Positions 1 through 39,266 of a DNA stretch of 39,266 nt are shown here, piece after piece. The notes beneath the pieces were generated by a model. That model was not told the origin of the DNA, made no database searches, and was given only the letters and a program-made list of their open reading frames with translations. The stretch's first letter is position 1. Each line of letters starts with the position of its first letter. The translations under genes and the position numbers were made by a program. Origin of the DNA: Escherichia phage N30; the sequence record NC_048078.1. One strand, given 5' to 3'.

Positions 1-159
1 TCTCACAGTTTAAGAACCCAAAGTTCCCCCCATAGGGGTCCCTAAAGCCCAGCCAATCACCTAAAGCCAACCGAAGGTTGACCTTGAGGGTTCCCTAAGG
101 GTTGGGATGACCCTTTAGTTGTCTCTTTGGGTTTACCTTGAGTGTCTCTTCTTGTCCCT
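1..159. repeat. Left direct terminal repeat (DTR)
   Basis: Bases 1-159 recur at 39107-39266 (identical except one extra G in a G-run of the right copy); T7-type genomes carry ~160-bp DTRs. Confidence 0.9.
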
Positions 160-350
160 ATCTGTTACAGCCTCCTAAAGTATCCTCCTAAAGTCACCTC
201 CTAAAGTCATTCCTACCGTCTACAACCTAAAGACTACACTTAAAGACACCATGAGTCAACGCCTATCTTAAAGTATCCTTAAAGACCAGACCTAAAGACC
301 AGACCTAAAGCCTATTCCTAAAGATGCCTTGTCGTTACCTATAAAGTGAT
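160..350. repeat. Array of short CCTAAAG-type repeats adjacent to left DTR (concatemer-junction/packaging region)
   Basis: Many copies of cctaaag / acctaaag / ccttaaag within ~190 bp; same position as the T7 left-end repeat array. Confidence 0.6.
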
Positions 351-369
351 AATCTTTATTCATTGTCTT

Positions 370-392
370 TAATACGACTCACTATAGGGGAG
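370..392 (+). promoter_or_regulatory. Phage RNAP promoter phiOL
   Basis: TAATACGACTCACTATAGGGGAGA, +1 G at 387. Confidence 0.85.
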
Positions 393-12201: not shown

Positions 12202-12218
12202 ATGATACGTGATGATAT

Positions 12219-12241
12219 TAATTAGACTCACTAAAGGAGGT
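12219..12241 (+). promoter_or_regulatory. Phage promoter (phi4.3-type)
   Basis: TAATTAGACTCACTAAAGGAGGT, +1 G at 12236; the AAAGGAGG doubles as the Shine-Dalgarno for the ATG at 12248. Confidence 0.7.
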
Positions 12242-12247
12242 AGCCAC

Positions 12248-12667
12248 ATGAGCACTGACTTAGAGAGACTTGAAAGATTCTTGAAGATTGAGGGCGATTG
12301 CTGGCTGTTCACTGGCGGCAAGTCACATGCCTACGGAGTGTTCTGGATGGGTGGTAAGAATCACAAGGCACATAGGGCTGCCTTCGAACTTTATAATGGG
12401 AGGAAACCTAATGGTGTTATATTACACTCTTGTGATAATCCTTTGTGCTGCAATCCCGCTCATCTATCTGAGGGAACTCAGCTTGATAATATGGTGGACA
12501 TGGTTAGAAAGGGACGCTCGTTAAAGGGTACGAAGAATCCCGCATGTAAGTTTACCGATGAGGATGTCAAGTTCATTCAGGAGTCTACCATGAAGGTCAA
12601 AGATTTAGCCACTCTATTCGGAGTGACGCGCCAAACAATAACCAGATGGAGGAAACACCATGTTTAA
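12248..12667 (+). CDS. HNH (homing-type) endonuclease with C-terminal helix-turn-helix-like tail
   Basis: 139 aa; HSCDNPLCCNPAHLSEGTQLDN matches the HNH H-x-CDNP-x-C-x-NP-x-HL pattern; clear paralogy with the ORF at 38108. The ATG at 12248 has a strong SD; the track start at 12209 lies inside the promoter. Confidence 0.85.
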   Translation: MSTDLERLERFLKIEGDCWLFTGGKSHAYGVFWMGGKNHKAHRAAFELYNGRKPNGVILHSCDNPLCCNPAHLSEGTQLDNMVDMVRKGRSLKGTKNPACKFTDEDVKFIQESTMKVKDLATLFGVTRQTITRWRKHHV

Positions 12668-15794: not shown

Positions 15795-16091
15795 ATGGCT
15801 ATCACGAAGAAATTTAAAGTGTCCTTTGATGTTACCCTTAAGCTGGACAGCGAGACCGAAGAACTTATGCGAGAAAAGATTCTGGACTTAGCTCATCGTG
15901 CTGGCGCTGGTGAGGAGATTGGTCCTATGGACCGAGAGTTGTTAGTTCAGGCCCTGACACGCGGCCCAGATGGTGCTGCTGCATTTGCTGTACGACAAGG
16001 TATCCGTAATGCTGTCAAGGAGATGTTCGAAGATTCTAGTGATAAAGCACTGTTCAAACAGTCTCCTGCAACTGTACGGGAGGTGTTCTGA
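15795..16091 (+). CDS. 5.5: gp5.5 (H-NS-binding protein in T7)
   Basis: MAITKKFKVSFDVTLKLDSETEELMREKILDL...FKQSPATVREVF (98 aa); internal Met of track ORF 15654, with GGAGA upstream. Confidence 0.85.
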   Translation: MAITKKFKVSFDVTLKLDSETEELMREKILDLAHRAGAGEEIGPMDRELLVQALTRGPDGAAAFAVRQGIRNAVKEMFEDSSDKALFKQSPATVREVF

Positions 16092-33181: not shown

Positions 33182-34843
33182 ATGGCTAACGTAATTAAGA
33201 CAGTTTTGACTTACCAGTTAGATGGCTCCAATCGCGATTTTAATATTCCGTTTGAGTATCTAGCCCGTAAGTTCGTAGTGGTAACTCTTATTGGTGTAGA
33301 CCGCAAGGTCCTTACGATTAATACAGACTACCGTTTTGCTACTCGCACCACTATCTCATTAACCAAGGCTTGGGGTCCAGCTGACGGGTATACTACCATC
33401 GAGTTGCGACGAGTAACCTCCACGACCGACCGCTTGGTTGACTTTACGGACGGCTCAATCCTCCGTGCGTATGACCTTAACGTAGCTCAGATTCAAACAA
33501 TGCATGTGGCAGAAGAGGCCCGTGACTTAACTGCTGATACTATTGGTGTCAACAACGATGGTCACTTGGATGCCCGTGGTCGTCGAATCGTTAACCTAGC
33601 AAACGCTGTGGATGACCGTGATGCTGTTCCACTTGGTCAACTTAAGGTCATGAACCAGAACTCTTGGCAAGCACGAAATGAAGCCTTACAGTTCCGTAAT
33701 GAGGCTGAGACTTTCCGAAACCAAGCGGAAGGCTTTAAGAACGAGTCTGGTACCAACGCTGCTAATACGAAGCAGTGGCGCGATGAGACTAATGGGTTCC
33801 GTAATGAGGCTGAACAGTTCAAGAATACTGCTGGTCAATATGCGACATCTGCTGGGAACTCTGCTACTGCTGCACACCAATCTGAGGTAAACGCTGGAAA
33901 CTCAGCTACGGCCTCAGCGGATTCTGCGGCTTCTTCAAAACAGCAAGCAGACCGAGCGAAGCAGGAAGCAGACAAGCTGGGAAACTGGAACGCCCTTGCT
34001 GGTACTGTAGATAGCGTTCAGGGTGATAGTGTATTCTGGAAAGGAGGAGGCTATTGGGTTGGAGGTCCCGTATACCAACTACAAACGAACCACGCGTTTA
34101 GGTTCCGTATGGGTCTTTGGGAAGAAGGCGACTTCCTTAAGTCTGACTTCGCTATGGACCGACCGGACGGTATAGGGTTCATAGAGTATGCAGCGGACAA
34201 GACTGGGCAACATCGTCACCAGATTCGACTTAATCAGTTAACAATAGCTGGCGGTGTATTAGAGTCAGATGCTGATGATCGCATAGCTCACGCTTTCGCT
34301 GACCAGTACAACACTAAAGCTCCTTTCTTCCAACAGATTCATGTACAGTCTACAAGCTCATATCACCCAATAATAAAGCAACGAACTTACCAATCTGGAC
34401 GGTGGGCAGGATGCTGGTCTATCGGTACATTACTGACTAGTACGTCTCCGTCATTCCACGTACATATGAAAGACGAAGGGGCAGGTGATAAACTTTGGAC
34501 GTTCAATACCAATGGAGACTTCCGCGTCCCTGGGGAGATTTGGGCCGATGGTGGACGTGTGGTTGTACGGAATGGCTCTTTTGACCCTGAGGGTAGAGTT
34601 TGGGGTAATGTGTATGATACCGGATACCTAGATGACTGGGTTCGAAGACATTTCATAGGGGATGTCTACCTAGGTCCTCAATCGTGGCAACAACAAACTG
34701 GAGGTTATCAGGACATTATAGCACCAGCTGGGCATGTGCAAACAGGTACAACCGCTAGTAATGGAGCCGTTGCGGGTATCTTTGTAAGACCGGTATGGCT
34801 TGGTTTCCATAACGGCACAAGAAGAATCATTGCGTCACAGTAA
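33182..34843 (+). CDS. 17: Tail fibre protein (gp17) with conserved N-terminal half and divergent C-terminal receptor-binding half
   Basis: 553 aa; N-terminus MANVIKTVLTYQLDGSNRDFNIPFEYLARKFVVVTLIGVDRKV... and coiled-coil rod are T7-like; C-terminal ~290 aa contain HxH motifs (QHRHQ, FHVHM). Confidence 0.95.
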   Translation: MANVIKTVLTYQLDGSNRDFNIPFEYLARKFVVVTLIGVDRKVLTINTDYRFATRTTISLTKAWGPADGYTTIELRRVTSTTDRLVDFTDGSILRAYDLNVAQIQTMHVAEEARDLTADTIGVNNDGHLDARGRRIVNLANAVDDRDAVPLGQLKVMNQNSWQARNEALQFRNEAETFRNQAEGFKNESGTNAANTKQWRDETNGFRNEAEQFKNTAGQYATSAGNSATAAHQSEVNAGNSATASADSAASSKQQADRAKQEADKLGNWNALAGTVDSVQGDSVFWKGGGYWVGGPVYQLQTNHAFRFRMGLWEEGDFLKSDFAMDRPDGIGFIEYAADKTGQHRHQIRLNQLTIAGGVLESDADDRIAHAFADQYNTKAPFFQQIHVQSTSSYHPIIKQRTYQSGRWAGCWSIGTLLTSTSPSFHVHMKDEGAGDKLWTFNTNGDFRVPGEIWADGGRVVVRNGSFDPEGRVWGNVYDTGYLDDWVRRHFIGDVYLGPQSWQQQTGGYQDIIAPAGHVQTGTTASNGAVAGIFVRPVWLGFHNGTRRIIASQ

Positions 34844-34852
34844 GGAGGGACC

Positions 34853-35230
34853 ATGAGAGTATTTTCTAACTGGAAGTGGACCGAAGGGTCTTACTTTGGA
34901 AAACCAATCTATGAGATTCGTGACCACAGTAACGTTGATTGGTACACCTTAATGGATGAACTAGATGAGCGCCAAGAAACATGGGTGGTAGGTATTGGAC
35001 CTAGCGGCGACGTTATGTGGTTCACTGATGGACCCGTGTCTGGACTGTACGTGCCTGTAGATGGGGGGACCGTTGTAGTAACTGATTCTTTCGAGTTCTC
35101 TGACAACTGGAGAGGGTGCACATGGGACGGTAAGAAATTCCATGCACCAGAAGAAGTCCAGAAGCGAACTAAGGAGGACATTGAGCAGGACTTACTGAAA
35201 CTCATGGCTGAGTTGAAGGGTCTGGAATAA
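34853..35230 (+). CDS. Hypothetical acidic protein; candidate tail-fibre assembly chaperone/accessory (no counterpart at this position in T7)
   Basis: 125-aa ORF with strong SD TAAGGAGGG overlapping the gene 17 stop and ATG 9 nt later (translational coupling); T7 has only a short intergenic gap here. Confidence 0.7.
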   Translation: MRVFSNWKWTEGSYFGKPIYEIRDHSNVDWYTLMDELDERQETWVVGIGPSGDVMWFTDGPVSGLYVPVDGGTVVVTDSFEFSDNWRGCTWDGKKFHAPEEVQKRTKEDIEQDLLKLMAELKGLE

Positions 35231-35492: not shown

Positions 35493-35762
35493 ATGGAAAA
35501 GGATAAGAGCCTTATTACGTTCTTAGAGATGTTGGACACTGCGATGGCTCAGCGTATGCTTGCTGATTTATCCAATGATGAGCGTCGGACTCCTCAACTC
35601 TATAATGCTATTAACAAACTGTTAGACCGCCACAAGTTCCAGATTGGCAAGTTGCAGCCGGATGTTCACATCTTGGGTGGCCTTGCTGGTGCTCTTGAAG
35701 AGTACAAAGAGAAAGTCGGTGATAACGGTCTTACGGATGACGATATTTACACATTACAGTGA
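35493..35762 (+). CDS. 18: Terminase small subunit (DNA maturase A, gp18)
   Basis: MEKDKSLITFLEMLDTAMAQRMLADLSNDERRTPQLYNAINKLLDRHKFQIGKLQPDVHILGGLAGALEEYKEKVGDNGLTDDDIYTLQ (89 aa); AAGGAG 8 nt upstream. Confidence 0.9.
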   Translation: MEKDKSLITFLEMLDTAMAQRMLADLSNDERRTPQLYNAINKLLDRHKFQIGKLQPDVHILGGLAGALEEYKEKVGDNGLTDDDIYTLQ

Positions 35763-36309: not shown

Positions 36310-38070
36310 GTGTCTACTCAATCCAATCGTAATGCGCTCGTAGTGGCGCAACTGAAAGGAGACTTTGTGGCGTTCCTGTTCGTCTTATGGAAGGCGTTAA
36401 ACCTTCCGGTGCCCACTAAGTGTCAGATTGACATGGCTAAGGTGCTGGCGAATGGGGAGAACAAGAAGTTCATCTTACAGGCTTTCCGTGGTATCGGTAA
36501 GTCGTTCATCACGTGTGCGTTCGTTGTGTGGTCCTTATGGAGAGACCCTCAGTTGAAGATACTTATCGTATCAGCCTCTAAGGAACGTGCAGACGCTAAC
36601 TCCATCTTCATCAAGAACATCATTGAACTGCTGCCGTTTCTCAGTGAGTTGAAGCCGAGACCCGGACAGCGTGATTCTGTAATCAGCTTTGATGTTGGTC
36701 CTGCTAATCCAGACCACTCGCCGAGCGTGAAGTCAGTAGGTATCACTGGTCAGTTAACAGGTAGCCGTGCTGATATTATCATTGCGGATGACGTTGAGGT
36801 TCCGTCTAACAGTGCGACTATGGGTGCCCGTGAGAAGCTATGGACTCTCGTTCAGGAGTTCGCTGCGTTACTTAAGCCACTGCCGTCTTCTCGCGTTATC
36901 TACCTTGGAACACCTCAGACTGAGATGACTCTCTATAAGGAACTTGAGGATAACCGTGGGTATACCACTATCATCTGGCCTGCCTTGTACCCAAGGACGC
37001 GTGAAGAGAACCTCTATTACTCTCAGCGTCTGGCACCAATGCTCCGTGCGGAGTACGAGGAGAATCCTGAGGCGCTGGCTGGAACTCCTACAGACCCTGT
37101 GCGCTTTGACCGTGATGACCTTCGTGAGCGTGAATTGGAATATGGTAAGGCTGGTTTCACACTACAGTTCATGCTTAACCCGAACCTGAGTGATGCCGAG
37201 AAGTACCCTCTGAGGCTCCGTGACGCTATCGTAGCGGCCTTAGACTTAGAGAAGGCACCAATGCATTACCAATGGCTTCCGAACCGTCAGAACATCATTG
37301 AGGACCTTCCTAACGTGGGCCTTAAGGGTGACGACCTGCATACATACCATGAGTGCTCGAATAACTCTGGTCAGTATCAACAGAAGATTCTGGTCATTGA
37401 CCCAAGTGGTCGTGGTAAGGATGAGACAGGTTACGCTGTACTGTACACCCTCAACGGTTATATCTACCTCATGGAAGCTGGAGGTTTCCGTGATGGTTAC
37501 TCCGATAAGACCCTTGAGTTGCTCGCTAAGAAAGCTAAGCAATGGGGAGTCCAGACGGTTGTCTACGAGAGTAACTTCGGTGACGGTATGTTTGGTAAGG
37601 TATTCAGTCCTATCCTTCTTAAACACCACAACTGTGCTATGGAAGAGATTCGCGCCCGTGGTATGAAGGAGATGCGTATTTGTGATACCCTTGAGCCAGT
37701 CATGCAGACTCACCGCCTTGTCATTCGTGATGAGGTCATTAGGGCAGACTATCAGTCCGCTCGTGACATAGACGGTAAGCATGACGTTAAGTATTCACTG
37801 TTCTACCAGATGACTCGCATCACTCGTGAGAAAGGCGCTCTGGCCCATGATGACCGATTGGATGCCCTTGCGTTAGGCATTGAGTATCTCCGTGAGTCCA
37901 TGCAACTGGATTCCGTTAAGGTCGAAGGTGAAGTGCTTGCTGACTTCCTTGAGGAACACATGATGCGTCCTACGGTTGCCGCTACGCACATCATTGAGAT
38001 GTCTGTAGGAGGAGTTGATGTGTACTCTGAGGACGATGAGGGTTACGGTACGTCTTTCATTGAGTGGTGA
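36310..38070 (+). CDS. 19: Terminase large subunit (DNA maturase B, gp19)
   Basis: 586 aa, GTG start after GGAGGTAAT; [66 protein letters not shown]... (Walker A-like GIGKS). Confidence 0.97.
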
Positions 38071-38107: not shown

Positions 38108-38551
38108 ATGATAAGCAAGAAGAAGTATGTTGTCGATAAGGAGACTGGTTGCTGGAACTTTAAGGGATGTAAGACGAAGACTGGTTATGGTCGTATTCGT
38201 GTGAATGGGGTACATTGGATGGCCCACAGGTATTCCCTGAGTTGTCACCTAGGTAGACCGATAGCTGACGGAATGGTTGTGATGCACCTGTGTGATAACC
38301 CTTCATGTGTTAACCCTGAGCACCTTAAGGAAGGGACTCAGAAGGAGAACATAGAGGACTGCATCCAGAAAGGTCGCGCAACAAAGGCCACAGGTAAACG
38401 CGATGTGTCTAAGAGAGACCCTAGCGAGGAACGTAAGGCTATCGTTATTCGCAGATACCATAAAGGCTGGACAGCAACGTCCATAGCCAGATACCATAAG
38501 CTCTCTGTGGCGTGGGTCAAGAGTGTAATTGAGGCTTACCTAAGTGATTGA
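38108..38551 (+). CDS. HNH (homing-type) endonuclease, paralog of the 12248 ORF
   Basis: 147 aa; HLCDNPSCVNPEHLKEGTQKEN HNH core; preceding GYGRIRVNGVHWMAHR aligns with AYGVFWMGGKNHKAHR of the other copy; SD AAGGAGGT upstream. Confidence 0.85.
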   Translation: MISKKKYVVDKETGCWNFKGCKTKTGYGRIRVNGVHWMAHRYSLSCHLGRPIADGMVVMHLCDNPSCVNPEHLKEGTQKENIEDCIQKGRATKATGKRDVSKRDPSEERKAIVIRRYHKGWTATSIARYHKLSVAWVKSVIEAYLSD

Positions 38552-38602: not shown

Positions 38603-38625
38603 TAATTCGACTCACTATAGGGAGA
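38603..38625 (+). promoter_or_regulatory. Phage promoter phiOR
   Basis: TAATTCGACTCACTATAGGGAGA, +1 G at 38620. Confidence 0.85.
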
Positions 38626-38869: not shown

Positions 38870-39106
38870 CTTACTGACCGACTGATGGCTCACCGAGGGA
38901 TTCAGCGGTATGATTGCATCACACCACTTCATCCCTATAGAGTCAAGTCCTAAGGTATACCCATAAAGAGCCTCTAATGGTCTATCCGTAAGGTCTATAC
39001 CTAAAGATAGGCCATCATATTAGTGTCACCTAAAGAGGGTCTTAGAGAGGTCCTGAGGAGTCCCTAGAGGGTCCTTTAAAATATACCATAAAAATCTGAG
39101 TGACTA
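38870..39106. repeat. Right-end short-repeat region adjacent to DTR (concatemer junction/packaging region)
   Basis: Repeated cctaaag/ccataaag/ccgtaagg-type elements, mirroring the left-end array. Confidence 0.5.
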
Positions 39107-39266
39107 TCTCACAGTTTAAGAACCCAAAGTTCCCCCCATAGGGGTCCCTAAAGCCCAGCCAATCACCTAAAGCCAACCGAAGGTTGACCTTGAGGGGTTC
39201 CCTAAGGGTTGGGATGACCCTTTAGTTGTCTCTTTGGGTTTACCTTGAGTGTCTCTTCTTGTCCCT
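39107..39266. repeat. Right direct terminal repeat (DTR)
   Basis: Copy of bases 1-159 with one additional G in the G-run at 39194-39197. Confidence 0.9.

Follow-up and report, generated by a model that had tools for sequence, protein, structure and literature searches.

A one-base difference between the two terminal repeats of the T7-like Escherichia phage N30 genome, probably an error in the right copy

The stretch of DNA analyzed here, hereafter called the window, is the whole of record NC_048078.1 (39,266 nucleotides, Escherichia phage N30). This record is the complete genome of a T7-like phage, with a short direct terminal repeat of the ordinary T7 type. The T7 proteins map on it collinearly and on the plus strand by tblastn, among them gp1, the RNA polymerase (98.9% identity), and gp16 (97.9%). 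The same search found full-length homologues, each in one frame, of the replication and packaging proteins gp2.5 (98.7%), gp4A (92.3%), gp5, the DNA polymerase (99.6%), and gp6 (98.0%); the window therefore carries both a T7-type terminase and the T7-type genes involved in concatemer formation (gp18, gp19, gp2.5, gp4, gp5 and gp6). It also displays the features expected of a Teseptimavirus-like phage, i.e., a collinear gene order on one strand, a single-subunit RNA polymerase and T7-type promoters (15 matches, six of which are perfect to the 23-base consensus). The top whole-genome matches in INPHARED are all Teseptimavirus records with 93-96% identity, namely CQ615, Serratia phage UFV01, JB01 and AV103, the best of them reaching 95.5%; the phage itself is absent from this collection. 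The features of the genome ends and of the packaging region are the following:

1-159 (no strand assigned): left direct terminal repeat, G3 form, 87-92% identical to the repeats of T7, NC-A and EFA-2, with a right boundary homologous to that of T7.
88-90 (plus strand): GGG run of the left copy, the form conserved in relatives, with the three-G length found in the relatives examined.
160-330 (plus strand): short repeats of the CCTAAAG type, arrayed immediately inward of the left terminal repeat, with seven copies at 174-317.
370-392 (plus strand): T7-type promoter, TAATACGACTCACTATAGGGGAG, in the position of T7 phiOL, which the T7 annotation places at 405.
35493-35762 (plus strand): homologue of gene 18, the small subunit of the terminase, involved in processing the concatemer junction, 96.6% identical to T7 gp18, full length and in one frame.
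36310-38070 (plus strand): homologue of gene 19, the large terminase subunit, 99.0% identical to T7 gp19 over 586 of 586 amino acids, in one frame.
38603-38625 (plus strand): T7-type promoter with one mismatch to the consensus, in the position of T7 phiOR, which is annotated at 39229, upstream of gene 19.5.
38949-39106 (plus strand): short CCTAAAG-like repeats, arrayed immediately inward of the right terminal repeat, with CCTAAAG at 39000 and 39029 and degenerate copies at 38949 and 39052.
39107-39266 (no strand assigned): right direct terminal repeat, 160 bp, G4 form, preceded by 30 bases identical to those that precede the right repeat of T7.
39194-39197 (plus strand): GGGG run of the right copy, the odd one out and a probable error, without exact match elsewhere in the collections searched.

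The short-repeat arrays are concentrated at the genome ends, since 13 of the 20 plus-strand copies of CCTAAAG in the whole genome fall in 1-330 or 39000-39172. We take them to be the equivalent of the repeat series known to flank the terminal repeat of T7.

The likeness to the T7 terminal repetition, which is exact and 160 bp long (V01146 / NC_001604), goes well beyond these arrays. Both genomes carry a direct repeat at each end (159 and 160 bp in the window), about 87% identical over its full length, and the boundary contexts match those of the experimentally determined T7 ends: the repeat of the window begins with TCTCACAG and ends with TGTCCCT, and the flanks are identical or nearly so, with ATCTGTTACAG on the left and 30 identical bases out of 30 on the right. 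Furthermore, the CCTAAAG arrays lie inside both copies, promoters occupy the positions of phiOL and phiOR, and gp18 and gp19 are conserved at 97-99% identity. Two differences were observed. The repeat of the window diverges from that of T7 at about 13% of positions, with small indels, and its two copies differ from each other by one G whereas those of T7 are identical.

Several other genes of the window differ from their T7 counterparts. Two ORFs on the plus strand (38108-38551 and 12209-12667) encode proteins with HNH_3 endonuclease and helix-turn-helix domains (Pfam E = 9e-9 and 4e-12) that are 35-45% identical to T7 gp2.8 and gp7.7. The first is located near the right end, between the large terminase gene and phiOR, and the other one between gene 4 and gene 4.3, two sites at which T7 has no gene. 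Conversely, no homologue of the T7 HNH genes 3.8 and 5.3 was found in the window and the slots of 2.8 and 7.7 are empty. As judged from the sequences, this distribution is consistent with mobile homing endonucleases. The homologue of the tail fibre protein gp17 (33182-34843, plus strand) resembles T7 gp17 over residues 1-288 (90%) whereas no T7 match was obtained for its C-terminal half, suggesting that the receptor specificity is not that of T7. It is followed by an extra ORF of 125 amino acids without Pfam match (34853-35230, plus strand), located between gene 17 and gene 17.5. Lastly, the homologue of gp5.5 (15795-16088, plus strand), the H-NS-binding protein of T7, shows only 48% identity whereas the flanking gp5 and gp5.7 reach 99%, suggesting that this gene was locally replaced or evolves fast.

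Global alignment of the left (1-159, 159 bp) and right (39107-39266, 160 bp) terminal repeats gave 159 identical columns and a single one-base gap, located in a G run: GGG at 88-90 in the left copy (ACCTTGA-GGG-TTCCC) and GGGG at 39194-39197 in the right copy (ACCTTGA-GGGG-TTCCC). The single-base difference is thus present in the sequence as given; it had been reported by the first-pass annotation, and the alignment bore out its coordinates, the strings quoted for it and the lengths of the two copies (159 and 160). The window starts with TCTCACAGTTTAAGAACCC, and its first 30 bases are found again at 39107 only. The left repeat ends exactly at 159, where ATCTGTTACAG follows, and the right one begins exactly at 39107, preceded by CTGAGTGACTA. 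Since a near-perfect identity over 159 bases cannot be due to chance, the terminal repeat is real. Its size and its direct orientation at both ends, with 159 of 160 aligned columns identical, are those of T7-type repeats (roughly 130-230 bp). The copies are not exact (G3 vs G4), but this mismatch, most likely a fault of the record, counts against the membership of the record, not of the phage, in the class of exact repeats. A shorter true repeat stopping at the G run was rejected, because the copies match perfectly on either side of the run, all the way to the boundaries shared with T7.

Nothing suggests that the extra base has any functional importance. The T7 annotation has no feature inside the terminal repeat, the first one being promoter A0 at 224. 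A relevance of the extra G to a local hairpin was considered and dropped, since the single-strand folds of the 65-66 bases around the run have similar structures and energies (-19.8 vs -21.5 kcal/mol with RNA parameters) and the T7 annotation shows no functional element there.

Comparison with related phages indicates which of the two forms is the conserved one. The left-copy form, GAGGGTTCCC, is present in ten relatives: T7, T7 mutant 270L, NC-A, EFA-2, phiA1122, YpsP-G, pO111, 3A_8767, CQ615 and vB_Yep_15. At the same site, vB_YpYeO9 has GAGGGGTCCC, i.e., four G in a row that result from a T-to-G substitution leaving the length unchanged. The repeat of EFA-2 equals the left copy of the window through this site and over roughly 85 bases before it, save for one extra C. 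The exact 22-mer with GGGG had no match in IMG/VR, in JGI metagenome contigs or in GTDB genomes. A 27-base pattern of the GGG form had five matches in IMG/VR, only from T7, phiA1122 and 3A_8767, and the right-copy pattern had none in this database; searches covering both forms yielded no match in JGI metagenome contigs or GTDB genomes. In INPHARED, a 57-base query spanning the right-copy site matched 157 records, none of them at 100%, the best being EFA-2 with one difference in 53 bases. Judged by these matches, GGG is the conserved state, and GGGG, absent from the four public collections searched, is unique to the record of the window.

The closest repeats in INPHARED are those of Escherichia phage NC-A (MK310182, 92%) and 'Enterococcus' phage EFA-2 (MT350293, 89%), which both carry GGG and both have identical copies. 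They differ in length from the repeat of the window: 158 bp for NC-A and 150 bp for EFA-2, in which an internal deletion and a C7 run are seen. The EFA-2 record has its repeats on the reverse strand, separated from the two record ends by 109 and 142 bp. MT350293 is labelled as an Enterococcus faecalis phage, yet it is T7-like and about 92% identical to the window, so that its host label looks doubtful for a member of an enterobacterial-phage group.

The two repeat copies are identical in nine of ten related records, two of which (CQ615 and vB_Yep_15) are assembler overlaps, identical by construction and uninformative on copy identity, although they still inform on the G3 state. Indeed, the terminal overlaps of PQ010280 (CQ615) and PV596791 (vB_Yep_15) measure exactly 127 bp and start within the T7-type repeat, a pattern typical of k-mer overlaps left by an assembler and not of true genome ends; the real termini are probably not shown in these two records. 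The length of a homopolymer of the repeat (C5 to C7, repeat positions 26-31) varies among phages but is the same in both copies of each record, and poly-C stretches of variable length have been described in the terminal repeats of T3-like Yersinia phages (PMC5923468). T7 mutant 270L (MZ375285) provides another example of such variation. Its repeat is 161 bp long and departs from wild-type T7 at two places: the runs around ATA are C6/G4 (C5/G5 in the wild type), and CCCTAAGGG replaces CCCT-TGGG. The two copies share these changes, as a homogenisation model predicts, and C6/G4 also occurs in phiA1122, in YpsP-G and in the window.

The exception is the record of Yersinia phage YpsP-G (JQ965703, 1-500 and 37462-38126 compared). 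Like the window, it is a deposited T7-like genome whose two copies of the repeat region show a one-base homopolymer difference (C4 vs C3). Unlike in the window, the duplicated overlap, of about 660 bases, runs past the terminal repeat into left-end sequence, and its copies further show several point differences and an (AG)n tract of unequal length after a phiOL-like promoter. This record clearly contains an assembly overlap left unresolved, not curated ends. This duplication is evidently an assembly artefact, and such discrepancies do reach public records.

The T7 replication and packaging cycle bears directly on whether the two ends of one phage could differ. T7 repeats are exact and are produced by extension synthesis at staggered nicks (PMC5557969; PMC5923468; PMC13600099). 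During replication, the repeats overlap and genomes are joined into concatemers via a shared repeat, which packaging has to duplicate (PMC5923468); by means of staggered nicks and extension synthesis, the single junction repeat is put on the right end of one genome and on the left end of the next one (PMC5557969). The following scheme is drawn from this established T7 biology, two of its steps being backed by the literature (PMC5923468, PMC5557969). Replication of linear T7 DNA would leave single-stranded 3′ ends, and the right end of a molecule would anneal via the repeat to the left end of a second one, so that every concatemer junction would be a single repeat to which both molecules contribute. 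From a G3/G4 genome, heteroduplex junctions would arise, which the next replication would resolve to G3 junctions and G4 junctions. As packaging would copy each junction repeat to two neighbouring genomes, each end of a progeny genome would bear G3 or G4. The assignment of the forms to left and right would be lost in one cycle, and drift would then fix one of them.

Under such a cycle, a fixed difference between the left and right repeats cannot be heritable. An end-specific difference would be scrambled within one infection cycle because the junction repeat is a hybrid of both ends that is then copied to neighbours. A different mechanism is not expected in this phage since its genes for replication, recombination and packaging form the complete T7 set, at 92-99% identity. 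The first-pass annotation had explained the usual identity of the copies by the duplication of one copy during concatemer processing. That the copies are normally identical holds for nine of the ten related records, but the reason given needs one refinement, which leaves the conclusion unchanged: the duplicate is passed to the neighbouring genome instead of the opposite end of its own (PMC5557969). A genome would have matching ends because, in every cycle, a right and a left end together rebuild each junction repeat, and the population is homogenised in this way.

Taken as a whole, these results indicate that the extra G at 39194-39197 is probably an error in the right copy, the two ends having been determined or edited independently. 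It could originate from a homopolymer miscall, from gel or trace compression, or from a slip during consensus building or curation, and the true repeat would then be 159 bp long with GGG in both copies. In support of this, the difference is a single-base change in homopolymer length within 159 otherwise identical bases. The earlier ranking of an artefact as most likely, ahead of real heterogeneity, is supported by the left-copy length found in relatives, by the absence of GGGG from the four collections and by the normal identity of copies in related records. It should also be emphasized that a generally indel-prone assembly or a noisy platform is not supported: all 37 T7 proteins that have a full-length homologue in the window align with it end to end and in a single frame by tblastn, without any frameshift in about 36 kb of coding sequence, and since no conserved gene is frameshifted, errors are not widespread in the assembly. 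Runs of at least five identical bases are few in this genome. If the extra G is an error, it is therefore local to the genome end. Errors can survive at non-coding ends because no reading frame exposes them and because coverage or trace quality is poorest there. Some points nevertheless argue against an error, namely the otherwise clean assembly and the fact that a G3 vs G4 run is short for a platform homopolymer error. Moreover, homopolymer lengths vary among related repeats, so that a real mutation from G3 to G4 could plausibly occur.

This last point leads to the main alternative, which we consider unlikely: a real polymorphism of the phage stock, in which G3 and G4 forms would each occur at both ends and the consensus of the two ends would have been called from different forms. 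Such a consensus could arise if, at each end, an assembler followed a single branch of a bubble in its graph. The variation of homopolymers between phages in T7-like repeats (C5 to C7; poly-C, PMC5923468) implies that slippage mutations arise and persist, a one-base change should be nearly neutral in a non-coding repeat, and indel errors are not otherwise apparent in the assembly. In addition, any new form must go through a mixed stage under the T7 concatemer cycle. However, a polymorphism requires both forms to be at intermediate frequency in a stock that is normally plaque-purified, as well as opposite calls at the two ends by chance, and the G4 form is absent from the other records and contigs of the collections searched.

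The reverse error, i.e., a wrong left copy and a true repeat with GGGG at both ends, is very improbable. The sequence alone cannot tell which copy errs, and vB_YpYeO9 does have four G at this site, but by substitution. Every relative, EFA-2 included, keeps the spacing of the left copy, and the GGGG-TT form is absent from the four collections. An error in the right copy is thus far more likely than an error in the left one. Weakest of all, and hardly credible, is a stable end-specific difference, with virions carrying G3 on the left and G4 on the right generation after generation: only the record itself speaks for it and nothing in the analysis points to it, whereas it cannot be reconciled with the way in which T7 replicates and packages its DNA (PMC5557969, PMC5923468) and has against it the T7 gene set at 92-99% (gp2.5, gp4, gp5, gp6, gp18 and gp19), the junction sequences identical to those of T7 and the identical copies of relatives.

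In practice, the error in the right copy that we favour leaves one base of the right repeat to be checked, with a probable correction of GGGG to GGG giving a genome of 39,265 bp with an exact 159-bp repeat. Its biological weight is small, as the feature is most likely not biological. A stable end-specific difference, if true, would mean that the repeats are not homogenised via single-repeat junctions as in T7 and would challenge the accepted packaging model. If the stock were a true G3/G4 mixture, the G run would be a small natural marker for tracking the homogenisation of T7-type repeats between genome ends.
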